Below are positions 1 through 56,451 of a stretch of DNA of 64,000 bases, in pieces. The DNA is from Euglena gracilis. Its lineage: Eukaryota. The stretch spans positions 31,024,012 through 31,088,011 of the forward strand of contig CP154954.1 in the NCBI GenBank assembly GCA_039621445.1. Direction: 5' to 3'. The translations under genes were made by a program, and so were the position numbers. Position 1 is the stretch's first letter, and each line of letters opens with the position of its first letter. The notes under the pieces are model-generated. The model was not told the DNA's origin. It worked only from the letters and a program-made list of their open reading frames with translations, and did no database searches.

Positions 1-3000
1 ATCCCGTACCGGAGGGACTGGTGCCGCACGAGGCGCTGCCGCGGCTTCCCGCGGACGAGCGCTTCAGGCACTGTCAGACGTCGGGGGAGGGTTTCCCTCC
101 ACAGGACGTCGTGGCATAGGGTCAGGTATGGTTGAGTGGGGTTGAGGTGGATACACGTACTGATCCCGTGGCATTGGCGCCTCCTGGGGGTATTCCCCAG
201 AGACGGTGTACTGAGACACATGCTCCTGCGCAGGATAATCCCGCCGGGGCATGCGCTCAGGGGATCAAAAAATACTTTCTTTTACACGTGGGTGTTCACT
301 CCGGACAGGTGCTTCCACTGTCTCTTCCTCGGGTAATCCGGGGGAGTGGGCACGAAAGTGTGCGGTGTAAGTGCCAACTGGTGGTACCTGCCGTGCTACC
401 TGTGGCGGGACGTCCAGGCCCAGGTCACACATGGTAATGTCCGCCGCGAATCCCGACGTGTCCGGGTCGGTGTAATACACCACAGGGCTGGAGGGGTGTT
501 CGCGATGGTCAAAATTTTACGGCAGTGGTCATCCCACAATGCCTGGGTTAGGTGGTCTGGCGCCGGGTTTGCGCTCATACGCATAACCCGGTTCATCGTC
601 CCCGCCGTGCGGTGGATCATCACACCCGCATACAGTGGGAGGCGACGAGAGCCTGATGGCTGAGATGGCCGCGCTTCCGCGGACATCGGGGTCATCCTGC
701 TACTGCTGCTGGCTTCAGGGTTTCCCCGAGCCGCAGTCCGTGCAGGTGGCTGCGTACCGTATCGGTACGCATACTGATCATATTGAGGGTGAGCGGTGGG
801 GTGGTAAGGCGGTCCTCCGCCTGGCTCCCTTCCACCGGTCAGCATGATACCGCCCGGGGTCGGTACGGTGGGATGGTTGGGTTGTTGGGTGTAAGTTGGT
901 AAAGGTAACCGCTTGAGGATTGTTTGCTAAAAAGTCAACGGAAAGAAAGAATGATAAGAATCAATGATAAAAAGAAGAGAAAACAACATGGGTTTCCCAT
1001 GCGTTCTCAAAAACTTGTCATGGAAACATCAATGTTATGCTTCTTGTTTCACAGCTTCCAATCTTGCTGGACATACCCAACAAAACTGGTTGCTGGCTCC
1101 CAAGTGTCCTCCTCGGGCCCCTACCCTTTCCAGCGGACTTTCCAAAGGTGCATACCTTTGTCGATTTTGTGGTCGATAATTTTATCGACTACAAAGTCGT
1201 CCGTCTCAGGTAATCTGGAACGGGGTTTGAAGTGCAGACAAGGGATGGGTTTCCCATCCGGCGGTGACAGGTATGGTTTGAAGTCGTCCATATGAACGTC
1301 CTCAACACCATTCGGTAATGCAACCTTGAACAATTAACGCCCGCTGGTACCTAGTCTTTCTAGGATTTCACAGGGGCCGAGCCAGAGGGGGTCCAGCTTG
1401 GAGGACTGCATGCGAGTACGGCTATTCCGCACCCACACGCGGTCACCGGGACTATACCCCGGTGACTTGAAATTCTGCAAAAACGATTTCCGTTTAGTTG
1501 CATGAATATCAGTCACGCGTTTCTGGACTGCAGAACGTAGATTTTCTACTTCCGCAAACCAGGTCTCGCAACTGACACTCGTTCGGGCGGGTCTCTTTGA
1601 AGGGACATCCCCTATGGCCGGAGGGTCCCGTCCGAAAACTAATTTATAGGAGGAGTGTGGTAAAACCAACCCTGGTGGGGTATTGATATGAAACAAAGAC
1701 CATGGTAGCACTGATATCCAGCTGCTGCGCGAGTCAGCCAGTGAAAGGCGAAGCATATTCACGACGGATTTCACGGCTGCCTCGGCTCTACCATTGCCTT
1801 TGGGTCGGTATATAATGGAAAAATGTTGCTCGATTCCGAGTAAACCTCACAAAGTGCTGAAAAACCTTGAAGAAATCAAATGGTCTTGATCACTCACGAT
1901 TTCATTCGGTAAACCCGTTAAGCAAATACATTTCTCCAAAAATATAACTGCGAAACTTTGGGCAGTCAGCCCTGACTTCTGGCACGGAAAGGCTACAATG
2001 TACCCACTCAGCCTGCAGACGACAACAAAAACGTAATCGTAAATTTTGTCGTCTGTTCCTTTGCACGGTTCTAATTCCAGAAAATCCATGCAGAGGGATG
2101 TAAAAATGTCAGGGGGTACGGGGAAAAAGTCCATCGTACCAGGGGGGGTACCTCTGCGGGGCTTTACCGCTTGACAAATTTGACTCCGTTGCGCTATTGG
2201 CAAACAGCGTGAGTAAAGCTCTTTCTCGCTCAGGGTTGTGCAATACCTGCGGCCCACCAACGAAAGAAGTTTGGGGGCCCCAGGGTGACCGTGGTTGTGA
2301 TAGCACAAAATCACATCATCAACCAGGTCCTGAGGGATACAATATTTGTAACCCGATTCATTGCGAAAAACCAACCGTAAAGGTGAAAGAGTGTAATTGT
2401 CCAGCACTTCGCCATTACGAAGCCTGGTGACAATGGTGTCATACACCGGATCACGAGTATAATCCCGTTCGCGAAAGAACAGCGGGGAAGGGGACTCCAT
2501 GCGCGTAATACGCCAGGGTCCGGACGTGCTTCCACGTCGGCGCCTTCCGTGCACTGGTGCGACCAGGAATAGTTGTGAAACGGGAAAAGAATCCAAAAGA
2601 TTATCCACAGCGTCATTTCGACGTGCGTATTCGTCAGCTTCCTGACTTCCACGAAAAGTCGCGTCTCCCTCATCCGGGTTCCCAGGGTAACACCAAGGGG
2701 CCCGACTGAGCGGATCCGCTACTTTTTGTGTGTGACCAGGGGTATAAATAACCACAAGGTTGAATTGACTCAAGAACTCATGCCATCTGCATCGCCTTCC
2801 GACCGATGAAATGGCCTTGTTCAAATCATCGGTGTACCAGTGTTGGAGACTCTCATGGTCGGTCTTGACGAGGATCTAGACGAGGCTGCTGGCGACCCAG
2901 CTGCGAAATTTCTGGAGTATAAGTACGATTGTGTAGGTTTCCTTCTCGCGTATACTCCACTTGACTTGACCCTTTCCGTCGTCGCCCTGTAATTTTCTGC

Positions 3001-4266
3001 TGAAGAAAGCCACAGGTCGGAGTTCATTCGCCGCGTTTTGCTGGCTAAGAACTCCGCCAACAGCGTAATCGCTGCTGTCGACTTCCAGCACATATGGTTT
3101 GTACGGGTCCGCGATTTCTAGGACAACATTCTCCAAAAGCAAAACCTTCATTTTCTCAAGGGCCTCGCGCATTTGGTCATCCCAAATGACTTTGGTGTTT
3201 TCAACAGCCCAGTTCTTGAGCTGTTTTGTGAGGGGCACCCTGATTTTCGCGAAGTCCTTCATATATATCGCGTAATATTGGGCTATTCCCAAAAATCCTT
3301 TGAGGTGTGTAGTCGTTTTGATTACCTCAGGGGTCCAATTCCTAATGGCTTCGAGTTTACTCGGAGCGGCTTTCCGCTGTCCATTGCTGAGGATGTGACC
3401 GCAAAATGTTATGAGTATCCGAAACAAATACATTTTCGCGCGTTTCACGAAAAGCACATGTTTTGGAAAAGGAGTTAATACCGCGCAAACATGGTGGAAG
3501 TGTGTGACGAGGATATCCTCGCTCGGTTTTGCGGATGGTGGTGGTGTTCCCACCGGCACATCATCAATGTACACAATTGCAAACGGTAAATCGCGTAGAA
3601 CCCATTGTGTCATGCGTTGAAACATGGCTGGCCCATTCTTAACACCCATGGGCAGTACCGTCCATTGGTACACACCCTTGGATGTCACGAATGCCGTGTA
3701 TGGTTGGGAGTCAGGGTGCCAGTGCATTTGGTGAAAACCGTCCTCCAGATCGAAAATTGACCACAACCGGTTTTACGATTGTTTGGTGATCAAATCCTCG
3801 ATCAGGGGGAGTGGGAAGGGATCATCCCTTGTTTGGGAGTTCAGGTACCGGTAATCCAGCACCAGTCTCCATTTCTTCTGACCTGGGGGGTCTGGGGGTT
3901 TAGGAACTACAAATGCCTGGGATGTCCACTCGCTTTTCGAGGGCACAATCCACTTGCGCTGAATAAGCTTCTCAATCATTTCATTGAGAGCTTGTTCGCG
4001 TTCTCCCGAACAACGAAAAAATTTTCGGTGCATTGGTTTAGCTCCTTCCTTAAGCTCGATCTTACAAACACCGAACGGACCGCGTATCGCGGGGTCGATG
4101 TCGCACGCGTATACTGGATTTTCCAGCACACCGTGAAAGTCCGGGTAATCCGGGAACAGAATTCGGCTGACTTAGGATGCTGACTTGCACTCTCGATGAC
4201 CGCGGAAACCGCCAGGGTATCCCTGGGGCTACCGAGCTTCCTCGGCACCGCAAATTCGGACATTCC
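1..4266 (-). mobile_element. G0: 3' half of a degenerate Ty3/Gypsy chromovirus (RT-RNaseH-integrase-chromodomain-ORF3); continues beyond the left window edge
   Basis: Minus-strand ORFs 3773-4129 (WRLVLDYRYLN, FPLPLIED), 2876-3766 (LPMGVKNGP, YIDD, EVDSSDYAVGGVL, RPVAFFSRKL, EKE), 1847-2824 (HxxxH..CxxC, CMDF, IVSDQ), 1334-1774 and 1121-1333 (chromodomain VDKIIDH..WKVRWKG..EDTWEP). Broken by stops and frameshifts. Confidence 0.95.
64..845 (-). pseudogene. G0 ORF3: sense ORF downstream of the chromodomain, Pro/Gln-rich with a conserved unknown domain
   Basis: Frames 396-845, 265-483 and 64-252 join into RMSA..WDDHCR..W..GF..DITMCDLG..VPP..VGTYTAHFRAHSPGL, which matches the ORFs at 17813-18774 and 29464-29865. 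Confidence 0.8.
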
Positions 4267-6924: not shown

Positions 6925-7224
6925 ACCGCCAGATATAGCTCTGACCTCCATACACAGTACTATGCTCTGTGATATTCTTAAAGATGGCCAACGGCCTGAA
7001 TTAGGAATACATGGATCCATAGAGCAAAACCTTATTCTGGTTTCTCCTCTCCGCAGGTGGTATCTTACTATTCTTTTCTTCACTTGATTTCAAGTTTTGA
7101 CTTCTTCTTCGAAGTCCTACAGGACAGCCAAATAACTTGGATTTATTGGTTGTAGCCTATAGGGCTCTTTCGCCTGCCTTGTGCTCTGCATACAGGTGAA
7201 TGGTTCGACTTCTATATATACAGA

Positions 7225-7238
7225 TGAGAGAGACACAC

Positions 7239-7273
<35 letters not shown>

Positions 7274-7317
7274 GAGAGAGGAAGAGAGAGAGAGAGAGAG
7301 AGGGAGAGAAGAGAGGG

Positions 7318-7404
<87 letters not shown>

Positions 7405-7454
7405 AAGAGAGAGAGAGAGAGAAAGAGAGCGAGAGTGAGAGAGAGGAGAGAGGA

Positions 7455-7492
<38 letters not shown>

Positions 7493-7771
7493 AGAGAGAG
7501 AAAGAGAGGAGAGAGAGATAGATAGAGAGAGAGAGAGAGATAGAGAGACGCAGGAGAGAGAGAGAGGATAAGAGGAGAGAGAGAGAGAGAGAGAGAAGAT
7601 AGAGAGGAGATATAGAGGAGAGAGGAGAGAGAATAGATCGAGAGGGAGATATATATATATATAGAGATAGATATATTATGATATATATAGATATAGATAT
7701 ATATTATATTATAGAGATAATGATAATATATATTGAATATATATATATCATCCTATATATATATATATATT
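7225..7771. repeat. Degenerate (AG)n microsatellite followed by (AT)n
   Basis: Directly visible; AG to about 7648, then AT. Confidence 0.98.
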
Positions 7772-7847: not shown

Positions 7848-9238
7848 TTTAGCTTTTTGGTTCCTTTTGACCAGTGTAGATTCCGGTGAAAAAAAGCAGA
7901 AACAGGTGTAAAAAGAGGGGATTGTATAAAAAGTAAGAAGAGACCCGAACTCTGAGGTTTGAAGGAGCGTATGCTGCGAACCGTCAGAGTTCGTGTCCGT
8001 GCGTACGGCTTTGCCCGGAAACGGCTGGTAGAGCCTCTGATAGACTATAGGCGGGGCACCACACCGCCTTTTTCTTGTTTTTTTGTGCTTTCCTGCAGAA
8101 ATGCAGATCACAACACCAACAGGCATTGACTACGCTGCATTGATTGGTTCACTTCGAGGAACTGAACCTGCAGCATCATTGAACAGCTCTAATGAGCATT
8201 CTCAACCCCATAGGGATACACAAGCATTGAATTATTCCACAGGTAATCCACCTTCTAAGCGTGTGTCACACCTATCGGTGTCTGTGTCAAGTATTCCTCC
8301 CCTCGCCCAATGGGCACCCCCACACATATCCCAATGCCCAACAGGCACAACCCCTTTGTTAGAGAGCCGATCGGCTGATAGCTATTCCTCCCGGCGAGAT
8401 CACGCACTCGTGCTGATTCTCATATTTGACTCTGAGGCGGATGCGCCACGACAGCTTTTGTCGAGGTTGGTTTAGAAACACCATGTTTTTCCAGCCCCCC
8501 CACCTGTGCCTCCACCGATAAGTCTGCTAGGACAACTGCCAGCACCACCAAATACGGGTTCTTTTCTGGCATTGCCATAGCACCCGGAGATGGGTTTGAC
8601 AGTACCCGCTTATGCAACCCCCGGGCAATCTATGAGCAATGATGTGGAAGAGTTGGGAAATATTTCCTTCCATCCCATTACCGTGATTCAGTGCATAGTC
8701 GCAATTTTTGCAGCGTAACACCCGCTTATGCGGCAAATTTCCCATGTGCACACTTGTGTAGCGGATTGCTCTATGACGCTTAACAAGGGTTTGGTTTTTT
8801 ATGAAAACAACCAAAAGGTTGTAGAATACAAGCTGGATTACCTTTGGTGTTATGTGCGTGATGTTGGTGAATATTGCCAAAACAATTTTTCAATCCACCA
8901 ACATGGACCTAGCCACTTTGCGTCAAGGTTTGGAGACACATTCGCAGACACATTTGCCACAACACTTCCAAAGAGTCAGTGAAGCCATGTGTGAAACACA
9001 ATCCCGCAATGATGCGATTTTGTCCAGCATACAACATATTTTACAAGCTTTATCCCATTGTGGGCGCTGGGAAAGAGATTAAGATTCCAGCAGAGGAATT
9101 AGGAATTACACAAAATTTTGTCTGTGTTTGTGTTTGTGTTTACAGTGGCAAGCAGCATGTTCAGTTTGACTTTGGTTGTTCAGTTCTGGGAAGTATCTTG
9201 ATTTGTGCCAGCGCTGGGAATTGGGAAGTGGGATTACC

Positions 9239-10009
9239 ATGAAAAGTTCCAAGGAAAGTCCCAGGTGGGTGCCAGGCCCCCTGGGTGAATTGATGGATCC
9301 CAGCCAGTGGCAGGGCCTGCAGGCGCCAAGTGCCAGCCGCCAGGGGGTTGTGGGAGTGGTGAGGCCCACACCCCCTACACAAACTGAACACTGCCAGTCA
9401 AACAACATGCCTACCAGCCACGTGGCGGCTGTCCGGCATGCCGGGATCAGGCATGGCATGTGCCTGCAGGAGATCATCAAGAAGGCGTGGACTGAAGGGG
9501 TGAACATCAACCTGATGGAGTATTATTCAAGTTTTGATGCAGATTGTGGCTGTTCGTGGTGTGCCAGTCGTGCAGCGGCTGCTGCTGCTGGCAGGCTCAG
9601 GGCCCATGGCAGGGTGGCCTCTGATGCCAGACTGGTGGATGCTGTGGAAGGACATGTCAGAGACGGGAATGCCAAGGATGGAAATGCCAGAGATGCGAAT
9701 GCCAAGGATGGAAATGCCAGAGACGGGAATGCCAAGGATGGAAATGCCAGAGATGGACATTCCAGACATGCGGATGGGCGAGATGGACATTCCAGACATG
9801 GAGATGGTCGAGATGGACATTCCAGACATGGAGATGGTCGAGATGGACATTCGGGAGATGGTCGAGATGGACATTCGGGAGATGGTGATGACGGAAGTTG
9901 GCATTGGGCCCCAGTGGGGCATGGCGAGGGCGGAGGCTCGCCGGAGAAGTCAAGAAGAATGAGAAGGAAGGAGCGCCGACAGAAGGCGAAGGAGGCCCCG
10001 AGGGGCTGA
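9239..10009 (+). CDS. Intact 256-aa ORF of mini element A: K.A..EG..EY..CxCxxC motif, D/G/R/H repeats, basic C-terminal tail
   Basis: First ATG after the predicted transcript start; no stop codons; shares its motif and architecture with the ORF of element B. Confidence 0.6.
   Translation: MKSSKESPRWVPGPLGELMDPSQWQGLQAPSASRQGVVGVVRPTPPTQTEHCQSNNMPTSHVAAVRHAGIRHGMCLQEIIKKAWTEGVNINLMEYYSSFDADCGCSWCASRAAAAAAGRLRAHGRVASDARLVDAVEGHVRDGNAKDGNARDANAKDGNARDGNAKDGNARDGHSRHADGRDGHSRHGDGRDGHSRHGDGRDGHSGDGRDGHSGDGDDGSWHWAPVGHGEGGGSPEKSRRMRRKERRQKAKEAPRG
9380..9390 (+). promoter_or_regulatory. Self-priming PBS CAAACTGAACA
   Basis: Exact reverse complement of TGTTCAGTTTG at 9158-9168 inside the 5' LTR; no TGG tRNA-type PBS. 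Confidence 0.85.
9659..9890 (+). repeat. Tandem 30-bp and 24-bp in-frame minisatellite within element A
   Basis: GAGACGGGAATGCCAAGGATGGAAATGCCA x3, GAGATGGACATTCCAGACATGGAGATGGTC x3, GAGATGGACATTCGGGAGATGGTC x2. Confidence 0.9.
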
Positions 10010-10220
10010 GGCCGAAGCCCTGCCTGGGATGGTGTGGGCTGGGTCCCCCTCCCGCATGCCCTGGGCCGAAGCCCTCACCAGCTGTGGCCGAAGCCCGCCG
10101 GGATGGTGTGGGCTGGGTCCCCCTCCCGTATGCCTGGGTCGAAGCCCTCAGGCGTTGTGGCCGAAGCCCGCCGGGACGGCGTGGGCTGGGCCCCCCTCCC
10201 AGGCCTGTGGCCGAAGCCCT
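10005..10220 (+). repeat. GC-rich ~75-80 bp tandem repeat (about 3 copies) in the 3' internal region of element A
   Basis: Recurrent GGCCGAAGCCC...GGGATGGTGTGGGCTGGGTCCCCC. Confidence 0.8.
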
Positions 10221-11371
10221 CCCCGCGGTAACCCCCTCCCGCTGCACCTGCGAGCCCCCTCCCCAGGACCCCCACCAGCCCCTGGACCCCCATCTCTGGA
10301 CGGGCAAAAAAGGGCAAAAAGAGGGGGAAAACGAGAAGAAAAAAAAAACCAGAGATGACGGCCCAAGGGGTATCTTTGGGCTGTTCTGGGGGGGAACCCC
10401 CGCCAGAACGGCCCAAGGCGGTGCGGATGCCTGCTGCTCCCCCCTGCTGCTGTAGGAGACCGATCCCCCTAAGGGTCGGCCTTCGACCCCCGCCCCGCCC
10501 CACAGAAAAAAAAATAAAACAGACAGACAGAAAGAAAGATTCAAGATTGTGTTCGTGAACGAAAAAAAAAAAACTCCCAGCGCCTTTTTGCCGAAGGCAG
10601 GTTTAGCTGCCCGGGGCAGCTTTTTAAGGAGGGGAGTGTGGGCGCTGGGAAAGAGATTAAGATTCCAGCAGAGGAATTAGGAATTACGCAAAATTCTGTC
10701 TGTGTTTGTGTTTGTGTTTACAGTGGCAAGCAGCATGTTCAGTTTGACTTTGGTTGTTCAGTTCTGGGAAGTATCTTGATTTGTGCCAGCGCTGGGAATT
10801 GGGAAGTGGGATTACCATGAAAAGTTCCAAGGAAAGTCCCAGGTGGGTGCCAGGCCCCCTGGGTGAATTGATGGATCCCAGCCAGTGGCAGGGCCTGCAG
10901 GCGCCAAGTGCCAGCCGCCAGGGGGTTGTGGGAGTGGTGAGGCCCACACCCCCTACACCATCAACTGGAGCCAATTAGGGCAATTTTTCCAGAATTACAG
11001 CAAAAGTTGCATGAACCCCCCATCAAAAATAATGATTTGGGACAATTCATCACATGGAGCACGTCTCCAGACTTGCAGCTGCGTTTCAGGAAGCGCTACA
11101 GCGCATTTTCCAATTGAGCGGTGATTCCGTGAATTTTGCCCATTTTGTTTGCCCAAGAAAACGAAAGTTTTACCCCCCGCACACATGTACAACAATTGGA
11201 CGGGAGACCTTCTCAGCTGGAGCATAATTCTTGCCATTGTGGCGACATTCCCGCTAAAATTGCGAGTTTTCATGCCCAAATCACGAATATCGCGAGTAGG
11301 ATTGAGAATTTGCAACAACAGTGGCAAAAAGGCACATCGGAAATATGAATCGCCATCGCAGATTTGCAGAA

Positions 11372-11945: not shown

Positions 11946-14329
11946 ATCGCAGATTTGCAGAACCGCAATGCGGCAACCCGTGCACCAACACCACGTATTA
12001 GCGGACTAAAGGCCACAATGACCGATTTGCACCAAAAGCTGCAACAGGATGTTGGTAACATTGAAGCCGCATTGGCTAAGGTGCATGCACGCTATGCGGA
12101 AGTAGCTGGCAGAATCCCGGATGTCACCGGCGTTCAAAAAGTGTTAGCGGATTTGCACAAACGCATGCAAGATTTAATCATAAAAGTGCTTCAGGTGCAA
12201 TCACCAACCAAAGGCGTATTGCCATCAACATTACAAACTCCCAAAACCGCACCCGCACACTTGGAGCAATTTAGTGCATAAATGCGTGCGGAAAATCACC
12301 AAATCATGCAAGGAATCTGTGATAGTCTCATGAAAACCGAAAAAAAATCGGTGAAACAGGATGTCGCAAAACTGCAAAAATGACCTTACCGCGCTATCCG
12401 CGCAAGTTCCAGTGTTGAAGGAACAACCAATGGCTGAAAAAGTCAAAGAAAAGCATTCGGACCATCCCACCAAGCCATTTACACAACTGGAGGCCATTTC
12501 CACTTCGATGCGCACTTTGGCGGTACGAGTACAGGTATTGGACACAGGTTCCGGTGCAATTTCGAAAGATTTGCAGCCGATTTCCGACAAAATCCTGCTT
12601 TTGGATGAGTTACCCTCATACCGTAGGCGGAGTAAGCGTTTGCAGGAGGACGTGGGTCGGATAACCGACAATTGGCAGGTTGCTGACCATTTGGAGCAAC
12701 GTGTGCATCAGTTTGCTACATACTCGGACCAAGTACAAGCACTACCGCGTTCCATACATCAAAACCTGCTATCGGGTATGGTTGACACACTTGCTACATC
12801 TTCCGGCGGTCGAGCGGATACCCGCTCCCCGCGTCGTCATGATGCCAAAAGGCAATCACAATCGCGAAACTGCTGTTGCCTTTGTAGGTCTGAAGACCTC
12901 CACTCATCCAAGTGCCCACGTTCCCGTTCTCCCCGCCCTGGCCATGGTCGTCGCGATTGCAATTGCGGTTCTGCCAGTAGGCAGCGGGTTGGTTTCAAAA
13001 TATCCTGTATCGAGGAGAAACACCTGGCTTCGGGCAGGAGGAGGACGAGAGCACCGAGGATGAGTTGGCGGAAGACAGGAGTGCGATTCGCGCGACACGC
13101 GCAGTTTATTCCAGAAGTCCACCACAGGCCAAAGGGACGACTCCGATATGGAGTAGGGGAGCCCGAGGTCTGAGGGCACAGACATCTGGGCAGATGAACA
13201 GATGGAGGCAGGAACTGATCACCCCTGCCCCCCCTGCCAATCGGTCTTTTTGGTCGGTACCCAGAAAATGTTCAGGTCCTCCACTCCCCCCTCCAAGTTT
13301 TTGCTTGGAATGTTGAGCAAAGTAAGCAAATGGTCATGGAACAGTTGGCGCGACAACAATTTTACCTCTGACGCTCCGCTTTGCGTACCCCCCATGGAAC
13401 TATGGTTTGAGCCAAAATCAAAACACAAAATTTCTGTGCACAAGCCAAAATTTTAATCGACACAGTGTGTTGAATCCCGCTTATTTTCCGCAAAGGACTG
13501 ATACCCAACTCCCTCTTGGTTCATGCCAAGAATCCCATCAAAATTATGCCCTCTGAAAACAGCCCCATGTGCGGTGGTGACTTGGGATGCCTTTTTGGAC
13601 TGCCCAGCGGCACAACTTTTTTGTTTTCAACCAGGTGTGTTGATTTCAGACAGCTAACCCAACCTACACCAACTTATGCAGTGACACCCACACAAACGCG
13701 CACCTCAAGCACCAACCCTCCTACCAAAGCGCTCACTGTTCTGAGAATCTCCGCTTACCCTTATTTTGATTGTGAATGTCTAGTTGAATATTCCAAACTA
13801 ATCCGATTGGATCCCGGAACCGGGAATTTTTCATCCCCTACCCAAACCTTTACACTTGTTAGTGGTAGTTTCGGTACTTATTTAATAGATAACCAAAAGG
13901 TACAGAGCCAGAGTACAATGGGTGATACACTCATCCGTACACTTGTTATTTTTTCACATCTCACAACTGCACTTGTCCGGTTTTTCGCAATTTGCGGATG
14001 CTATTCAAGCACTACAGTGCAAATGCATGGCCTCCCTCTTCAGATTTGCGCCTAGCGCTCCCCACGCGCCTATGGCGCTCTCCACACACCCCGCGCATAT
14101 CGTGCTTCACGCACACAGTGCGAATTGAGACATATTACGCATTCTGCACTATTGCACATCACCGATGACTGCAGGTATGCCCAACCCACACATGCCCCGT
14201 CTGTATCGAGTCCTATGGACATGTGTGTGGATGATTCACAATTCTGTTGGTCTGTTTTACAGCATGTACCACCCCTTCAGGATGTTGAGCAGGTCTCCAA
14301 GAACACAAAGGACAATTGGAATGCTTTTC

Positions 14330-14720: not shown

Positions 14721-17372
14721 TCTTCCCAAACTTCCCCCCTGAATGTTAGTGTTGGATGATACCGACCATGTAGGAGCCGATATGGCTTTGCTCCATTCTG
14801 CTGATAGGCATCGCCGTTCGGCCCCCTCTAGGGTTAATATGACCCATCAACAGGTTTCCGCTATCATTCAAAGTGCAGGACAGCACACCAATTCAGCAGA
14901 ACTTAATACGCGGATCAGTCACAAATTTTCTGGTGTTTCAGAGAATCCTGTTTACGCATGTGATATAGACCCCGCATATTAGCGGGCCTTTTGGTGTCTG
15001 TAACATTCAGCTTAAGGAAGGCGTAAAGCCAATGCATCGGAAATTTTTCCGTTGTTCAAGAGAAAGAGAGATATCTCTCAATGAAATGACTGAAAAGCCC
15101 ATAGAGCGGAAGTGGATCAACCCTTCGAAGAGTGAATGGACCTCATAGGCTTTTGTTCTTTCCTCAGCCCCCAGACCCAACTGGTCAGAAAAAGTGGAGG
15201 CTGGTACTGGATTATCGGTACTTAAACTCGCAAACGAAGGATGACCCATTCACGTTACCTCTATTTGAGGACCTCGTCGCAAAACAAGCGGATAACCGCT
15301 TGTGGGCAATTTTCGACCTGGGGGATGGATTCCACCGAATGCATCTGGATCCTGTTTCACAAGCCTATACGTCATTTGTAACATCCAAAGGTGTTTACAA
15401 ATGGACGGTTTTTCCAAGGGGTGTTAAAAATGGGCCAGCAATGTTTCAGCTCATGATCCAATGGATCTTCCGGGATTTACCGTTTGTGCTGGTATACATT
15501 AATGATGTTATGGTCGGAACCAGCCCTCCATCAGCGAATACACATTAGAATACTCTCGATGTTCAATATTGTGATGTTTGAGCTGTGTTAACCGCTTATC
15601 TCAAACACAGACGTTTCGTCAAACGTGCTAAAATGCCCTTATTTCGCGAAACAATAAAATTTTGCGGTTACATTCTGGATAATGGCCAACGCCGAGTTGC
15701 GCGTAGCAGACTTGAGGCTATTAAGAAATGTACACTGAAGTCATCAAGACCATCACTCATTTGAACGGGTTTTTGTGAATAGCCCAATACTACGCCGTTT
15801 ATTTGAAAGATTTGGCGAAAATCGCGGTACCTCTAACGAGGCAGCTCAAAATATTGCGCACCAGAAAATACAAAATTCAAATTGGACGCAGACATGCGTT
15901 AATCTCTAGAGAGCATTAAAAAGCTAACGCTTGAAAAGGTCGTACTCAACATCGGGGATCTCTACAAGCCTTATGTGCTCGAAGTCGATAGCAGCGATCA
16001 TGCTGTAGGCGGTGATCTAAGCCAGCGTGACGCAGACAACGAGTTACGCCCTGTAGCATTTTTCAGCCGGAAGCTACAAGTGAAGATTGCAAAGGCCAAG
16101 TCAAATGGAGTAAAAGCGGTGAAACCGCGCAGAGGTACCCTCCCTGGTACCCTTGACGTTTTCCGCGTACCCTCCGACATTTTTACGTCCCTCCGTATGG
16201 ATTTGTTTAAATTACAACCTTGCAAAGGATCAGACGGCAATCTTTACGACTATGTCTTTGTCGTCGTCTGCAGGCTGAGTGGTTACATAGTAGCCATTCT
16301 ATGCCAAAATGCAGGGTTGACCGCGCAAATTTTAGCACTTATATTTATCGAGAAGTGTATTTGCCTAATGGGTCTACCGAATGAGAATGTCAGTGATTGA
16401 GATCATTTCATCTCTTCCGGATTCTTGACTGGGAATCACTGGGAATCGAACATCATTTTTCCATTATATGTATCGCCCGAACGGCAATGGCCGCGCCGAG
16501 GCAGCAGTGCAGGCTGTTGTAAATATGCTCCGCCTCTCACTGGCTGACTCGCGCCAGGCCTCAGTCCAGGTTTTGCCATGGTCCCTCTATTATATAAACA
16601 CCCCACCGGGTTTAGTTTTGCCGCACTCCCCATACATAACTGTTTTTGGGCGAGAACCGCCGGCGATTGGTGATATACCATCAGAGAGACCGGCTGGAAG
16701 TATCGTAACCTGTGAGACATGGTTCTCTGAAGTAGTGACTCTCAAAACTACTGTTCAAAACCGTATCAATGATATCTATTCTCAAAATAGAAACAAATTT
16801 TTGCAAGTATTGAAAGCACATAGCTACATTCCTGGTGGCCGCGTATGGGTACGAAATAGTCGCACAAGCATGCAAGCTTCCAAGCTAGACCCCCTCTGGC
16901 TGGGACCCTGTTAAAATCCTGAACGCGCTGGTAACAATGGCCGCTATAGGATGGCACTGCCGAACGGGATCGAGAATGTTCACATGGATGATTTCAAGCC
17001 ATATCTGTCCCCGCCTAATAGCAAAGCACTACCGTGCCTTTTTTTTAAGCCCTGTACAAAATTACTAGAAACGGAGGATTTTGTGGAAGACAAAATTCTC
17101 GATAACAAAATTGATAGGGGTGTTCATTACTGGAAGGTCAGTTTGAAAGGATATGGGCTATAGGAGGACACCTGGGAGCCAGCCTCCAGTTTTGTCGGTT
17201 ATGTACAACAGGACTGGAAGCTGTGGAATAAAAGAAAAAACATAGACTTTTTTGTGAATGATTTTTGAAACTGGACTATAGGCCTTTTCCCCGCCTCTCT
17301 GTTTTCTTCCCACCCCCAATTAATGTTTCTCTTCCTTTTCCACACCTCAAAAAGTTACTTTTTCTCGCCAGA

Positions 17373-18774: not shown

Positions 18775-20991
18775 CTCCAAGGCCCTCGGTCTAGAGAACG
18801 CAGACATGCGTCACAGCGTTACAGGCCGGCAGATCTGTTTGCGGATTTACACAAACGGTGCAACGGTATTCAAAAATCATTTCCGGATATCACCGGCATT
18901 GAAACCGCGCTTGCGGATTTGAATACCCAACACAAAAACTTACAAACCACCACTTCCCATTTACAAAAAAGCGTTCAAGCACTTTCTACAAGGGTCTCCG
19001 GACTCCAACCATCCTTAGATGGACAAACTGTTCGCGAAGTCGAACTACCCCCTGATTATCAGACATTTTACGACTAAATGCTTGCAAAAAATCAGAAAAA
19101 CTAAAAAGAATTTTGTGAAACCTTGATGAGGAACGAAAATTCGGTCCCCCAACAAACTCTCACACTATAACGACAAATTTCGATGTTGCAGAACCGACTT
19201 TCTACAATGATGGACGGCAGAACCGCTGAAAAGGCGGTAGGGGTAACCCAACCCACGTTGCGCACCTCAACCACACAAACCGAGAATCGGATGAACGCCA
19301 TTACAACCGCGATGGAAACTTTGGCTAAACGGGTCCAATTCTTGGACACCGTTTTCCAAAGCTTCAGCGCATTTTAACACCGTTGTTGACAAACTACCAC
19401 TTCTGGATAAGTTACCCCTATACCGCAAACGTATTAAGCGTTTGCAGTGTGACGTTGAACGAATTTGGGTCCTTTTCCAAGTGGTCGGTTCGTTAGAACA
19501 AAGTATCCAAGATTTTGCATTGAGTCTGGATAAGATTCATGCAAAGTCCTGCAACCCCCCGCACATTGCCCATGAAAACACAGCTTTCGGTGGTCAAAAT
19601 TCGACTCCCAGTTCACAAAGTGCTGTTCGCGCTTCAACAGAAGCATCTTCGGATGGCAGACATCCAACTCGCGAATTTGTGCATCAAATTCGCGACTCGT
19701 TGGATGCCAATCCTTCCAGAGGCGCAGTATGCACACCTCTACAAGCATCTTCGGATGCATATGCCCTACAAGCATCAACGGATGCACGTGATCATGCACA
19801 TGCTTAGAATCGCGATTACAATCGCTTGTTTATACTCCAACTTAAGATGCCCCCCGTAACGGTGAATCTTCAGATGAGGAACCGGTTTTTCACAAGGACC
19901 GCGAATCCTGGGGTTTTACAACAAGACCTCCTTGAATCGGGACTGATTCGTGGTACGAGCCATCCCCATACCCCGGGTATTGGCCATGGATCGCGAGCGC
20001 GAAACGGGGGAATCGCCGGCGGTTCCCCGCTTTGTGGGTGAACAACAGGCTTCCTACCTCCCTGGGATGTTACCAGTCCCCGAATCGCGGAACCGCGAAA
20101 CACAACCACAAAATTAGCAGAATCGCGATATACCAAACACCCTGTAGGGGGGGGGGGGCCAATCTGGCCCCCACTTTGTCTTTTCCATTGGCAGATCTGA
20201 CATTTGCAGGTTTTTCTGTAGCAATTCTTGTACTCCCCAGCCAGCATGAATCCTTCCCTTTCAGCTACCTTCAGCGCCCAGGGGCCACAGACATTTGTAG
20301 GGTCTTTCCCCAGGTACTTGACACACTGCCTCAAATTTTCCTTTTCAATCTGCTCCTCCCTGCGCCTTGATTCCTCCATCAGCCAATTCATTGCGCCAAA
20401 CCTTCCCAAAACCACAGCAAGAAACAAACCAGAAGTCAAAGCCCCAAAGGGTTCATACTGCTTGCCACCTGCACAAAGTTACAGATGACAGATTGTGGAA
20501 TGTACAAATTAGGAATCTCTGGCCTGGCTCTGCTTTATTCTGCTGCACATCTGGGAGCGAATCCCACACTCCCCTCCTCAAAAACCTTCCCAAGCTATGT
20601 CAGCCTTTGGCATCTGGGAGTCGCTCAAAGATGGGCTTCACCTGTGCCACCTGCCTTTCCCCCGCCCTCGAGCCACACAAGTCGTTTTTCGAGCAATTGC
20701 CGACCCCACCATGCCACACCCGTGCATGCCGTGGCCCACTGCCTGCGGTTTGTGCACAGGGGGCAATTGGTTCCCTGGAGCAATGGCTACCTGAGCAATC
20801 GTCGAAGACGTGCCACCAGGGCCTGCCACACAGGGGGGGGGAGGGTTTGGGGCAAAAGTTACCTGGGCAATCATCCCGGAAGATGTGCCACCAGGACTTG
20901 CCACACAAACCGGCATGCCACTGAAAATTCGACCCGGAGCTTTCGACAGGGGGCAAAAAGAACAAGGCAATCAGGTTAACACCCGGTCCGC

Positions 20992-21687
20992 TTAGTCCTC
21001 GAGTCGCTTGGCAGCCTTAAGCTTCAGCCTTCTCCTTCTCCGCTTCCAACTGGTCGTCTCATTCTTCACTCTTGACTTTGGTTCGTCTGCACCTGGCTCA
21101 GCCACATCCTTCTTCGGGACTTCCCAGTTGAACGGTTCTTCCTCGTCGGTGGACTCGCATCTGACCTTTGACAGCTCCTTCTGGCTTGCTTCTTGCACTG
21201 CATCACCAGCATGTACACCTGTGGCATGCACAGCTTGAGCATCTTCTCCATCACCACTTCTGGCATGCAATGGGTCCCCATGGCCCAGCTGTACATCCCC
21301 ACATCCGCCTTCATCAACTTCAATGTCACCATGTCCAGGGCTGTAATGCCCGATGCTGGCATTACACACCTCAGCATTCATTGACTTGTCATCTTCAGCA
21401 TGCACAACTTGGACATCTCTGCAAGGCTCATGAACCCTTTGTGTAGGGGGGGGGCCAATCTGGCCCCCACTTTGTCTTTTCCATTGGCAGATCTGACATT
21501 TGCAGGTTTTTCTGTAGCAATTCTTGTACTCCCCAGCCAGCATGAATCCTTCCCTTTCAGCTACCTTCAGCGCCCAGGGGCCACAGACATTTGTAGGGTC
21601 TTTACCCAGGTACTTGACACACTGCCTCAAATTTTCCTTTTCAATCTGCTCCTCCCTGCGCCTTGATTCCTCCATCAGCCAATTCAT
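20992..21687 (-). CDS. Intact 231-aa ORF of mini element B: KVAEREG..EY..CKCQIC, acidic region, basic tail KRRRRRLKLK
   Basis: Part of the listed 247-aa ORF, taken from the first usable ATG; crosses the LTR/internal border as in element A. Confidence 0.6.
   Translation of the reverse strand: MNWLMEESRRREEQIEKENLRQCVKYLGKDPTNVCGPWALKVAEREGFMLAGEYKNCYRKTCKCQICQWKRQSGGQIGPPPTQRVHEPCRDVQVVHAEDDKSMNAEVCNASIGHYSPGHGDIEVDEGGCGDVQLGHGDPLHARSGDGEDAQAVHATGVHAGDAVQEASQKELSKVRCESTDEEEPFNWEVPKKDVAEPGADEPKSRVKNETTSWKRRRRRLKLKAAKRLED
21430..21441 (-). promoter_or_regulatory. Self-priming PBS CAAAGGGTTCAT of element B
   Basis: Plus-strand ATGAACCCTTTG (21430-21441) is the exact inverted copy of CAAAGGGTTCAT at 21741-21752 inside the 5' LTR. 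Confidence 0.85.
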
Positions 21688-24600
21688 TGCGCCAAACCTT
21701 CCCAAAACCACAGCAAGAAACAAACCAGAAGTCAAAGCCCCAAAGGGTTCATACTGCTTGCCACCTGCACAAAGTTACAGATGACAGATTGTGGAATGTA
21801 CAAATTAGGAATCTCTGGCCTGGCTCTGCTTTATTCTGCTGCACATCTGGGAGCGAATCCCACAACCCATGATACTTACGGTAGCATGAGTACCATCCTG
21901 GATGCGCATTTGCGCACGCCACCACAACAACACCACACAAACAATTACAATGGAAATCGCCGATAGCAACGCTACTTCAAAGGTACAATTACAATTGCTA
22001 ATAAGGTCAAGCCACAATGGGACGGAGATCCCACAACTTGGAAACTATTTTGGCGTGACTGGGTACACTACTTGGACTTGAAGGGTCCAGCCCAACACGG
22101 GAACCCCGATGTAATCAAAATGGAATTTATTGGTTGCCTCTCCAAGGAAGAAAAAGAACGTGCCCGAAAACTTGTGATCCGGGTTCGGATTTCTTTTGAT
22201 GAACTGGTTGACCAATACGCGTCAACTTGTTCAAGCCTGATTTCGTGAATTACGCTGGAGAAAAAATGGCGGTAATTCGCGCCTACTGACAGAAAATGGA
22301 AGGCAATGGTATTCCAAATGGTTGGATTGGATGCTGAAGTTGATGAACTGGGAGAGAACAAAATGAAAGAGCAATTCGCTTCGGTTCTTCTCCTTTTCAT
22401 TTATACAATTATCAAGGACATTGACCGTGATGAACTCGCGGACAAAAAACTTACACTTGACCAACGGTGGAATTATTTTTCCAAACAAATGAAACTCTCA
22501 CAACTTTTGGGACATATTCAATCGGCTTATACCCACCACCCAACCGCTGGTCTCCCTAGCGGTACGGTAAGTGCCCTACAAAGGACGTCTTCTCCAAAAT
22601 CTCCGCGGGAATACGACAAACATACAAACTCCCCAAGTGGAGACACAAAAACGCGCTACCCGTGCTACACTGACCAATCTACTGACAAAACGTGCTTTTT
22701 GTGCAACAAATCGGGGCATACGCGCCGTGAATGCCCCCACCCTGATACACGAAAGCGGTATCAGAGTCCAAGGGGATCGCAATCCTTGCCGATCTCACGC
22801 TCCTCTGGATTTCACACAAATCTGGACAATCACAGTATTTGGGTTTTCTGCGGACGTGATTGCGCACCTTGTGGTCGCTCACCCCGACCCCCTTACAAAC
22901 ATGATACAAATCGCGATTCATCGCGGTCACGTTCGCAAAGTGGGTCATCTTCTGCGCGATCGTCATCCGGGAAACCGGATTACAACAGCCGTGGTCGAAC
23001 AGGATAAGGTTCACCAAGACCTCCAAGGGGTGAAAGCCCATCAACGTCACAAAACCGACAAAAGTGTTCCCTTTGTGGATCACACACCCATCACTCGTCC
23101 AAATGTTACTGTTCTCGCTCTCCCCGCCCGAACCAACGTCACCGTAGTGAAACAAAACACAACAAAATACTCAAGGTCGGGTTCAAAATCTCCTCTTTAG
23201 AGGAGGGAACCCCGGCTTCGGGCAGGGAGGTGGATGAGAACTCCAAATACTCGCTGGAGGAATACCGCAATGCGGTCCGCGCATTATGCGCTATCTATTC
23301 ACACAAGAAAACGATAAACAGCCGAAGTGCTGAATCGGACCTGGAGTAGGGGAGCCCGAGGTCTGTGGGCACGAACCTCTGGGCTGATGAACAGAGAGAA
23401 GTAGGACCTGATAAACCTTACTTTCCCTGCTCACCTGCCTTTTTGGTCGGTACCCGGAAAATGTTCACGTACCCCACCCCCCACCCCGAATTTTTGCCTG
23501 GAATGCTGAGCAACGTAGGAACGGGATCGTAGGACAGTTGGAGAGACAACAATTTTACACCGGATCCTGCACTTTGCCTACCCCCATGAAACTTATGGTC
23601 TAAGCGGAAATCTGAACACAAAATTTTTCTACCAAGTGCAAACTTTGGTTGACACAGGGTGTCACATTCCCCTTCTCTTTCAAAAGGGGTTACTTCCAAC
23701 CTCCCCATGTGCCCCATGTGCTGTGGTGACTTGGGATGCTTTTTGGACATGGTCCTCCCCATAATACCCAAGCACCACTCACAACCCCCACACATACAAG
23801 TATTTCTGGGTACCTGGAGTTATGAAGCGGGTATCCGCGGGTCTGACACAATTTTTGGTTTTCCGTTCTTCCGTCAGAACCGCCTTGTTGTGGACTGCCC
23901 CTCCCTCGGTTTGCACACTACTTCACGCACACAACCCACACCACCGAATTGCCCCCCAAGGCGACTTCCCAGACCTCCCCCCGCCTTTCAACAGACGCCC
24001 AACTGTGCTGATGAGATTTTTTTTACGTTGCATGGTACTCTTATTCCAAAACAACACAACACAACTTTTTTTGAACCGAAAACACCGTTTCCTACACCAG
24101 GGGTGAAGAAAAAGCTGCCACCCTACACACTACACTTTTACAGAACGATTTCACATGCGGTAGGGAAAGCCAGTAGCTTAACTCCCCACGTTTCACTGGG
24201 TTCCAAGGTGAAAGCGCAAGGGCCTGAAGTTATAAAGGTGTCGAGTAGCCGCCCAGCCGCACAACGTTTACGTTTTCCACCAGGTGTGTCGACTTCGGAC
24301 ACCCCTGTACACCCCCCAGCAGCTACAACTTTCAACACACCCGTACACACACTACACATGACTGACATGCAGTACCAGACCGACACTTCCTGCCAATGCG
24401 CACATTGTAGGAGAATTTCCAAACAACCTGATTTTCATTGTGGATGTATTGTTGAACCTTCCAGACTAACCGCTTTACTCAACGATCAGAGTACACTTGA
24501 TAGAAGAACCGGTACCGAGTTTACCCTGACAACCGAACGAGAACACAACACACCGGGTTGTTACCCGTTGTGTGTTGAAGTACATCGACAACTGGACAAA

Positions 24601-24869
24601 TGCGGAATCGCGTCCTTATTCGGAATCGCGAGAATCGCACAGGAGCATCTCCAATGGCAGAAAGCTAATTTCTCTAACCACGAATGGCAGAATGCCAATC
24701 CGTCCAATGTCCCCGGTTCCAAATGGCAGAATGCAAACAACAAGTGTACTTTTCACAAAACCCTTGTTACACTGGGTACAATGTCTGATGAAGTGTCTGC
24801 GGACACACCGCATTACCAAGTAAACTGTGTTTCAGCCCTCCACAGGACTGAAACCGCGACAGTTTTCAA

Positions 24870-25320
24870 GAAAGGCATTTGGAATGTACTCAACTTTGGA
24901 CAAGATCGCATTTTGGAAACCTGGTTTTCCAAAATGGCTCCAATCACGAAGCGGATGGACCTACAATTGGACATTGATGCATTTTTGTGCAAAGCACGTT
25001 CTCGTTTGCCCAATTACCGCTCAAGTCATTCAAATGTGTTTGATAAGTTTTGGGGTGATGTAGCCCTGTGGCTACATCTACATCTGTAATTCACTTCTCT
25101 TGTATTTTCACAAGATACTTCGGGATCAAGCACGCGGTGCGCTGCTCATACCGATATATCCCGAAGCGGAATGGTTCCAACAACTGACGTATGTCACTTT
25201 TCAGTGGTGGGATTTACCAAATGACACCCATTTATTTGAATATTTTTGTGATGTCATTTTACCTCCATTGAAAGAAGTCATTTTTCGTGTTTGTTTCTTT
25301 GATGCATTCGGAACTGTTGA
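24870..25320 (+). pseudogene. Dam-like N6-adenine methyltransferase domain in G2 pol
   Basis: LDIDAFLCKARSRLPNY..NVFDKFWGDVALWLH..KILRDQARGALLIPIYPEAEWFQQL..WWDLP..FRVCFFDAF. Confidence 0.8.
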
Positions 25321-55353: not shown

Positions 55354-55996
55354 GGTGTATGAAAAAATGGGTTTCGAGGTGGTGACGGTGGATTCAGACC
55401 CCAGGTGGAAAGCAGATTACCAGGTGGACGTACTGGACTGGGACTTCAGAAAACACTTCAAACCTGGTGAATTCCACACGGTGGTGTGTGGAGTTCCCTG
55501 CACAGAATTCAGCATTGCCCTGACGACAAGACCCAGAAACCTAGAAAAGAGAGACAACCTTGCAAAGAAAGCCCTGGAAATTGTGGAATTTCTGCAGCCG
55601 CAGAAATGGTGGTTGGAAAACCCAAGGTACGGATACCTGGGAAAACGAGATTACACGAAACCGTACCCGTACATTGACGTGGATTACTGTCAATACACAG
55701 ACTGGGGTTACAAAACACCAACACGAATCTGGGGCAGCCCTGACATCCTACAGGTACCAGCAAAACGGTGTGACGGGAAAACCTGCAAGAACCTTGACCC
55801 GAACGGTGGTGGTCACCTGGTGAAACTCAGCAACAAACACAACATTCCAGCCTTCAAAAAATTAAGGATCCCAGAACAACTGATTCAGGACATGGCGGGG
55901 TTCCACGAACGGCTACGGCAAACCAGCCAAGCCCAGGACGCGCAGCAACAACCGCTGCAGCAGCCCAGCCCTGCCCAGACGGCACGACAATACATG
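55354..55996 (+). CDS. C5 cytosine DNA methyltransferase fragment lacking motif I, inserted with an 8-bp duplication
   Basis: VVTVDSD (II), VDVLDW (III), GVPC (IV, catalytic), WLENP (VI), YKTPTRIWG (VIII), RIPEQL (X). No internal stops. CAGGAATA at 55346-55353 and 55997-56004. Confidence 0.88.
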
Positions 55997-56451
55997 CAGG
56001 AATACTTAGCATCCCCATAAGCAGGTGGGACTCAGACAGGGGGGATTACTCACCGGACCCCCAGCTCTTTGGGTGGCTAAGGTGGCAGTTCAAAGGTTTC
56101 ATAAGTTTGGAAACAGATTTATTTGCCTCCCCAGGCAACAAAAAGTTGTCGAATTTTGTAGCCAGGTAACCCCACTGGGAGGCCACAGGAGTGGATGCCC
56201 TGCAATGTCCACTGGATAACGTGGGGTGGCTTTGTGCAAACCTCCCCTTGGTGACTCGTTCAGATGTTTCTCCCAAGATTGAAGAAGCCTTCCCAGATCA
56301 AATTTTGTATGGTCACCCCCTTTGGATTTCAGCCACGTTGTGTCCCCAATTAATAAAGATGAAAATACCAGGAACCACCTTCCTGAAAATCACTCCCTAC
56401 AAGGTCATTTTTTTTTACCAGTTGCAGGGGTGAACCAATGCCACCACCCAG

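Follow-up and report, generated by a model that had tools for sequence, protein, structure and literature searches.

Non-autonomous long terminal repeat (LTR) elements are usually held to be either noncoding (TRIM and LARD) or Gag-only (TR-GAG). LARD elements are non-autonomous, partner-dependent LTR elements that are defined as noncoding. In the cited passages, TRIM elements are small, likewise defined as noncoding, and reliant on the enzymes of a partner (PMC6934838), and the TR-GAG elements of plants (terminal-repeat retrotransposons with a GAG domain) are shorter than 4 kb, with one open reading frame (ORF) and no pol (PMC4350172). In Tf1/Tf2 and the Tf1/sushi group, as described in the parts cited, an LTR stretch of 11 to 12 nucleotides (nt) is complementary to the adjoining primer site, and Tf1 itself is autonomous, with a single Gag-PR-RT-IN ORF behind that site (PMC7175516, PMC6934838). 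A stretch of 64,000 nt from Euglena gracilis (GenBank assembly GCA_039621445.1, contig CP154954.1, positions 31,024,012 to 31,088,011 of the forward strand; the window) contains two short LTR elements, referred to here as elements A and B, each with one ORF (ORF A and ORF B), that share features with each of these groups.

Like the TR-GAG elements, which are thought to be still active in the passages cited, elements A and B are short and non-autonomous, show the usual LTR features, and have one ORF but no pol. The TR-GAG ORF is recognizably a Copia- or Gypsy-like Gag (PMC4350172, in the part cited), whereas the protein of the A/B type (150 to 256 amino acids [aa]) matches no Gag, capsid, or CCHC sequence; its ORF starts inside the LTR, and the elements carrying it are self-priming as predicted here. 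Judged by sequence, TR-GAG is the closest known kind, and elements A and B fall outside it because their ORF is not a recognizable Gag. They differ from LARD elements in being coding, and from TRIM elements, as characterized in the cited passages (PMC6934838), in having a conserved ORF within 1.7 to 1.9 kb. Unlike Tf1 as described there, they have no pol, and their ORF runs from R/U5 through the primer site. No such protein in a self-priming, non-autonomous element was found in the literature at the level of titles and abstracts, which makes this a weak claim.

Elements A and B are real, young non-autonomous LTR retroelements (Table 1). We give about even odds to the reading that they represent young, self-priming, pol-less LTR families in which a gene in gag position encodes the elements' own RNA-binding or import helper. 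A very abundant mini element here probably keeps a conserved, unnamed protein other than Gag, partly encoded in the LTR and crossing the primer site.

Table 1. Features of elements A and B in the window (positions are those of the whole stretch).
Feature	Position	Strand	Remarks
Element A	9059-10957	+	LTR mini element, 1899 bp
Element A target site duplication CCAT	9055-9058, second copy 10958-10961	+	Sequence reading
Element A 5' LTR	9059-9379	+	321 bp, TGTGGG...CTACA, 2 mismatches versus 3' LTR
Motif GTGGCAAGCAG in A (11 nt)	9145-9155	+	Directly upstream of predicted RNA start; common to A and B
Element A self-primer TGTTCAGTTTG	9158-9168	+	LTR position 100-110; predicted first RNA bases
ORF A	9239-10009	+	256 aa, first ATG after predicted RNA start
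Element A primer binding site CAAACTGAACA	9380-9390	+	Inside ORF A, codes QTEH
ORF A cysteine motif	9461-9562	+	Residues 75-108: C75, C103, C105, C108; aligns to family N-terminal domain
ORF A minisatellite	9646-9890	+	15/24/30-bp units; codes D/G/H/N-rich part
ORF A basic tail SRRMRRKERRQKA	9950-9988	+	Predicted helix 239-252
73-bp tandem repeat	10005-10221	+	2.9 copies; begins exactly at ORF A stop codon; 3' noncoding region
Element A polypurine tract AGGAGGGGAG	10627-10636	+	Adjoins 3' LTR
Element A 3' LTR	10637-10957	+	321 bp
Element B	21864-20143	-	LTR mini element, 1722 bp
Element B target site duplication ACCC	20139-20142 and 21865-21868		4-bp duplication
Element B 5' LTR	21442-21864	-	423 bp
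Element B self-primer ATGAACCCTTTG	21741-21752	-	LTR position 113-124; predicted first RNA bases
ORF B	20992-21687	-	231 aa
ORF B cysteine-rich domain core	21487-21621	-	Residues 23-67: C23, C35, C57, C62, C64, C67; encoded inside LTR
Element B primer binding site CAAAGGGTTCAT	21430-21441	-	Inside ORF B, codes QRVH
ORF B basic C-terminal helix TTSWKRRRRRLKLKAAKRLED	20995-21057	-	Conserved in family; helix 211-228
Tandem repeat of element B	20772-20904		Between ORF and polypurine tract; repeat comparison
Element B polypurine tract AGGAGGGGAG	20569-20578	-	Adjoins 3' LTR
Element B 3' LTR	20143-20568	-	426 bp; versus 5' LTR, 1 mismatch plus poly-G length change
Second ORF B start, in 3' LTR	19870-20391	-	173-aa ORF reading out into flanking DNA

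The LTRs of the two elements are alike in layout (TGTGGG...CCCCCTACA, with TG..CA ends), and GTGGCAAGCAG occurs without mismatch at four places in the window, all of them in LTRs of A and B. At the DNA level, sharing between A and B is limited to the tract (29 nt, 90%), the LTR end CCCCCTACA-CAAA, and the GTGGCAAGCAG motif, so that A and B are two families with common cis-acting ends and not copies of one element. Given these shared sequences, both probably use the same partner machinery. No Pfam match to a protease, reverse transcriptase (RT), or integrase was found at E ≤ 1 in a scan of the ORF A and ORF B products. Both elements contain tandem repeats of 73 to 75 nt downstream of the ORF and ahead of the polypurine tract; these repeats are unrelated in sequence between A and B and could be RNA signals.

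In both elements, a complement of the primer binding site lies in the LTR, as in the Tf1 rule by which the first 11 RNA bases are complementary to the primer binding site (PMC7175516, as given in the cited part). The complementarity begins at the first base behind the 5' LTR, and its LTR partner begins 2 bases beyond GTGGCAAGCAG. It is exact over 11 nt in A (9380-9390 with 9158-9168; as good in 18 of 5000 shuffled LTRs) and over 12 nt in B (21441-21430 with 21752-21741; as good in 0 of 5000). Complementarity holds inside each element although A and B have different sequences at these sites, a pattern equivalent to natural covariation. The self-primer was paired with the primer site in both the minimum free energy and the centroid folds of the A and B RNAs, whose total folding energies were unexceptional (z-scores of -1.7 and -1.4). 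No tRNA genes or Rfam families were found in the 64-kb window and hence no primer of the tRNA type. Elements A and B are predicted to be Tf1-like self-primers, in which the 5' 11 to 12 nt of the predicted RNA would fold back on the primer site. If RNA starts at the self-primer (9158 in A, 21752 in B), ORF A begins at the first ATG and ORF B at the second, the first ATG of B being bases 1 to 3 of the predicted RNA.

Both ORFs have their start ~180 nt inside the 5' LTR and run across the LTR end and the primer site, and the PPTQ found in both proteins is encoded by the LTR end together with the beginning of the primer site. The first-pass annotation had described two intact ORFs of 256 and 231 aa in mini elements, starting within the LTR, at the first usable ATG behind the predicted start, and reading through U5 and the primer site, with a shared motif that is internal in A and inside the LTR in B. 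These ORFs were found as described, in LTR elements flanked by target site duplications; their start and read-through are consistent with the RNA start predicted from the self-primer, and the motif, with its cysteines, lies where it had been placed. The accompanying statement that almost every other ORF in the window is broken was overstated, since the window contains 18 ATG-initiated ORFs of at least 200 aa, the longest of 460 aa. The minisatellite units of ORF A are indeed multiples of 3 (periods of 15, 24, 30, and 60), but this carries no coding signal, the minisatellite being stop-free in four of six frames. Beyond the minisatellite, the ORF frame is the sole open one, and the five others contain stops (1 to 7 in the first 135 codons of A and 4 to 17 across B). 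With the domain of the B protein encoded by the LTR, the 3' LTR of B holds a second ORF start, and a read-out fusion with flanking DNA could arise at every insertion or solo LTR of the B family.

Relatives of ORF B were found in protein databases. A word-indexed search gave P0001 (E = 4e-33) as the sole match among 121 candidates, and an exhaustive phmmer search of 1.84 billion representatives, free of any length limit, gave 8 proteins at E ≤ 1e-3 (five at ≤1e-10, one at ≤1e-30), with no longer or fused form of the family. The family as used here consists of ORF B and nine relatives (P0001 to P0009; alignment A1, 10 rows). The relatives are singleton clusters from ENA, JGI, and Logan assemblies, on contigs of 680 to 1988 bp, with proteins of 88 to 216 aa that are 28 to 55% identical to ORF B. 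None has a functional name, and the lone label is "hypothetical protein" on P0004. ORF A and all 10 rows of A1, ORF B among them, were without a Pfam match at E ≤ 1, and nothing among PDB sequences matched the family profile at E ≤ 1. A profile built without ORF B matched ORF B at E = 3.6e-53.

The relatives share with ORF B an N-terminal block, C.KYLG.DPTNVCG.WAMKV.AREGFMLAG.Y..CYR..C.C..C, followed by GHSETQ.VHE.C, which in B corresponds to the LTR end plus primer site, then by an acidic, histidine-rich linker of widely different lengths. The C-terminal part contains F.WEVP in some relatives and then the terminal S.KRR.RRLKLK[SA], with the stop 4 to 13 residues beyond the LKLK, LRLK, or LKLR motif. 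Conservation is at least 90% for cysteines C34, C56, C61, and C66, which are among the best-kept columns. The N-terminal domain and the tail are in one frame in P0001, P0002, P0006, P0008, and P0009 (148 to 216 aa), and P0005, the N terminus of which is cut, keeps the tail in frame. Since neutral sequence at such divergence would not be expected to keep start, frame, and stop, ORF B is very probably a real, conserved gene of the element. DNA of the relatives was not among the pattern matches with A2 (104) or with P0006 (221) in scans of metagenome_contigs, nor among 30 pattern matches in viral_contigs. The lone weak match among 40 in genome_contigs, L001 from a bacterial metagenome-assembled genome, was rejected on translation as a chance GRDPRNVCG in a GC-rich frame.

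AlphaFold, run on B with the 10-row alignment, predicted a confident fold confined to residues 1 to 70 plus the C-terminal helix. The predicted local distance difference test score (pLDDT) was 89 to 97 over residues 1 to 50 and 78 to 81 over residues 51 to 70, with helices at 2-26, 35-45, 51-54, and 64-71. Residues ~80 to 205 were predicted to be disordered, and the C-terminal helix (211-228) had a pLDDT of 86 over residues 211 to 220 and 74 over residues 221 to 230. When A was placed at the head of the family alignment, pLDDT was 85 to 94 over residues 60 to 120, and predicted helices at 59-67, 76-86, 92-95, and 106-116 followed the order of those in B, with a C-terminal helix at 239-252. An alternative layout of the A domain suggested by MAFFT, split by a 50-aa insert containing the LTR end, was discarded, as pLDDT was only 35 to 62 over residues 1 to 57. 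Structure prediction followed by Foldseek, which had been suggested for these proteins, thus yielded a confident domain in B but no Foldseek match against the PDB at E ≤ 1e-3; the VIA wide fold search had a best Z of 4.5, unspecific and reflecting only common helical arrangements, and ESM Atlas contained no usable match for ORF B. The cysteine pattern, C..C..CxCxxC, is without the histidine spacing of the CX2CX4HX4C zinc knuckle. Zinc binding is generally associated with cysteine patterns of this kind, and RNA binding or nuclear import with arginine-rich helices. The C..C..CxCxxC pattern fits zinc binding, which is probable here, and the arginine-rich helix fits a nuclear protein.

ORF A was compared with this family separately. 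The motif that had been noticed as common to the two ORFs exceeded shuffled controls: BLASTP of A against B gave E = 3e-4, with an alignment extending into low-complexity sequence, and the nine-relative profile built without B, searched against all 1442 six-frame pieces of the window, ranked a piece of ORF A first among the non-B pieces (E = 0.0017, 15.1 bits). The next piece had E = 0.047, and no six-frame piece beyond A and B matched the profile. The score of ORF A was reached by 1 of 5000 shuffles of the whole ORF (0 of 5000 when the profile included B) and by 2 of 5000 shuffles of the first 135 residues (3 of 5000 when it did). In a MAFFT alignment, the cysteine motif, WHW versus F.W ([FW]xW), and the basic tail stood in the same order in A and in the family, the tail of A being similar, not identical, to S.KRR.RRLKLK. 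On these comparisons, we consider that ORF A belongs to the ORF B family somewhat more probable than the opposite.

The copy number and transcription of element A were assessed from sequencing runs, all of which were compared as contigs. In DNA run X1, 5090 contigs lay on 9000-10636, and the LTR bins had ~2 times the summed depth of the internal bins, which indicates that the A family is highly repeated. Contigs of X17, an RNA library from a leaf-litter metatranscriptome, extended over 9198-10154 and covered the entire ORF A; X17 had no cover at 9110-9164 and beyond 10154, from which no conclusion is drawn. A 1339-nt contig of X15, for which the RNA label is a guess, matched 9106-10499 at ~98% identity. 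Contigs of X15, X17, and X20 matched 9000-9058 and then continued like the sequence behind the 3' LTR of A (loose ends at 9058/9059). Contigs that lack A across its flanks (9000-9058, 10958-11000) show that A sits inside another repeat that also exists without A. In X20, labeled as a second organism, A-type pieces were found over 9430-10127 with 0 to 7 differences per piece, and the A family is thus common to at least two labeled organisms, or the labels cover close relatives.

The proposed mechanism can be set out as follows. Each element carries one gene in gag position, starting in R/U5 of the LTR, whose product would consist of a small helical cysteine domain (probably zinc bound), a disordered acidic/histidine linker of free length, and an arginine-rich C-terminal helix. 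The protein would be made from the element's own RNA. Through its basic helix it would either bind this RNA or be directed into the nucleus, and through its N-terminal cysteine domain it would dock with an autonomous Ty3/gypsy partner, on that partner's particle or proteins. The partner would supply protease, RT, and integrase and recognize the shared LTR ends and polypurine tract, and the mini-element RNA would be packaged and copied. The RNA-binding or nuclear-import function of the protein, taken by itself, is put forward tentatively, at less than even odds. A broader version, which we regard as rather doubtful, is that elements of this type are hitherto undescribed coding parasites of self-priming LTR elements that discarded gag and pol and acquired their own zinc-binding, arginine-rich adaptor, partly encoded in the LTR, that would tag their RNA in cis for the particles and import route of the partner, with a U5/primer-site boundary that can move across the gene. 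The boundary could be movable because self-priming needs only an 11-nt self-complement, and its movement would account for the different places of the domain, within the LTR in B and downstream of the primer site in A. Should the protein prove to be an RNA-binding adaptor, it would illustrate how a retrotransposon parasite competes for the machinery of its partner, and the known retroelement proteins would gain a new small domain family. The A and B primer sites also provide an example of natural covariation for Tf1-type self-priming in a host other than the model yeast.

Several observations count against the helper reading. No similarity to Gag, capsid, or zf-CCHC was found in the Pfam, PDB-sequence, and fold searches, and of the earlier suggestion of a minimal Gag only the position of the gene is left. 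An autonomous partner might be expected to have the same tract plus LTR start, LTR end, or GTGGCAAGCAG, but none of these turned up at any other LTR of the window. The long X15 contig, guessed to be RNA, begins at 9106, upstream of the RNA start predicted at 9158, and the X17 contigs begin at 9198. Three of the nine relatives of ORF B (P0003, P0004, and P0007) are truncated or frameshifted, P0005 is almost identical to P0001, and part of the N-terminal conservation could reflect RNA constraints in R/U5. For A, the hhalign comparison with the family gave a probability of 12% (E = 0.0024, 44 columns), four of the six family cysteines are present, and the domain lies behind the primer site, whereas that of B lies before it, as do those of the relatives by the TQ.VHE block. 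A search of 5.8 billion proteins gave no relative of ORF A at near lengths (3229 candidates), a search with residues 48 to 140 gave none at shorter lengths (20 candidates), and the confident fold of A is driven by the family alignment. The 24 ORF A variants listed comprised 7 synonymous and 17 nonsynonymous changes and 0 stops, with 23% synonymous, 73% nonsynonymous, and 4% stop expected under random change and 6/17/1 and 2/22/0 in control frames. Among the indels listed, those in ORF A (3, 24, and 54 nt) are in frame and those outside it are of 1 and 2 nt; the former sit in trinucleotide or minisatellite repeats, where in-frame change is expected anyway. No purifying selection was visible among the close A copies listed, in a test of little power, and near-neutral variants are what postinsertion decay of young copies would give. 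Finally, ORF length alone proves nothing: among 3000 dinucleotide-preserving shuffles of each element, an ATG-initiated ORF of at least 256 aa occurred in 456 shuffles of A (15%) and one of at least 231 aa in 160 shuffles of B (5%), and the dinucleotide TA is scarce in these GC-rich elements (13 per kb in A and 19 in B versus 36 in the window).

These observations bear on several other explanations. The ORFs could be chance frames in young, stop-poor repeats, with the similarity among relatives due to cis-acting nucleic acid constraint (R/U5 structure, primer site, and purine-rich 3' signal). ORF lengths reached in shuffles, the stop-free frames of the minisatellite, the near-neutral A-type copies, and a TQ.VHE block that is merely LTR end and primer site all agree with this view, and the caution that the ORFs might be intact simply because the insertions are young was right as far as ORF length is concerned. 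It leaves the diverged relatives of B unexplained, however: in five full-length relatives at 28 to 55% identity, domain and tail are kept in one frame despite varied linkers, as is the tail of P0005; the stop keeps its distance from the LKLK-type motif; the cysteine columns rank among the best kept; no frame but that of the ORF is open in B or in the nonrepeat part of A; and AlphaFold folds the domain confidently from 10 sequences. Chance frames are thus quite unlikely to account for both ORFs. The earlier proposal of a selected cargo protein fared well for B, whose nine relatives, at identities down to 28%, keep cysteines, start region, tail, and stop, and less well for A, for which the profile match is modest, the hhalign probability low, and the close copies near neutral (7:17:0). 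Family membership of ORF B alone, with ORF A an unrelated chance reading frame that was extended by the minisatellite and matches the motif by accident, is accordingly a tangible possibility, though below even odds. It would account for the hhalign result, the failure to find database relatives of ORF A at the lengths tried, the missing cysteines, the domain on the far side of the primer site, and the neutral-looking copies, but not for the first rank of A with the profile built without B and its 1 to 2 matches per 5000 shuffles, the common order of domain, [FW]xW, and tail, the single open frame over 135 nonrepeat codons, or the cis-acting ends common to both elements.

Arginine-rich helices also occur in the retroelement accessory proteins Rev and Tat of HIV. 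The A/B protein resembles these and the CERV protein of Cer1 (for CERV, the cited part of PMC10309623) in being a small element-encoded protein with a basic helix and possible RNA binding or a nuclear signal, and it could be a regulatory accessory acting through that helix, for example a Rev- or CERV-like RNA exporter or a silencing suppressor. Its small size, disordered acidic linker, and lack of any capsid-like fold found here would suit such a role, for which CERV is a precedent. Rev, Tat, and CERV come from autonomous elements with gag and pol, however, and no sequence or fold similarity to the A/B protein was found; moreover, the A/B gene is the sole ORF, in gag position, and a non-autonomous element needs packaging above all, so a purely regulatory role seems unlikely. 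It is far less probable still that the ORF is a host gene fragment captured by transduction and kept or not by chance. LTR retrotransposons do take up pieces of host genes (PMC3726574, in the part cited), but the relatives amount to 8 small proteins and P0001 among 1.84 billion, on contigs of <2 kb, none of them longer or functionally named and none with a Pfam domain, and the domain of B is encoded in the LTR. The helper reading stands beside these alternatives at the even odds given above.

The window also contains broken Ty3/gypsy pol remnants at 1337-3772 (-) and 15903-16397 (+), with RVT_1, RT_RNaseH_2, rve, Integrase_H2C2, and Tf2-type integrase SH3 domains. The Tf2-type SH3 remnant, at 1337-1846 (-), matched below the Pfam cutoff and is circumstantial for a partner. 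LTRs of these remnants were not found in the window, and the remnants do not share the ends of the mini elements.

Other features of the window were noted. ESM Atlas contained no usable match for the 460-aa ORF at 23707-25086, and the ORFs of the ~10- to 11.5-kb repeat matched no Pfam family except a CCHC knuckle just under the cutoff (22306-23007) and an NPV_P10-like coiled coil (32119-33543). This repeat has copies at 13128, 23321, and 34861 that are 69 to 75% alike (12355-14052, 22276-25089, and 32119-35957) and its ATG-initiated ORFs reach 460 and 425 aa (478 and 475 aa measured from stop to stop). A repeat-rich stretch at 55355-56017 (+) weakly matched C-5 cytosine DNA methylase (E = 4e-4, 20.4 bits versus a cutoff of 22), and a long (GA)n-type microsatellite at 7200-7600 reads as an ERERER ORF.

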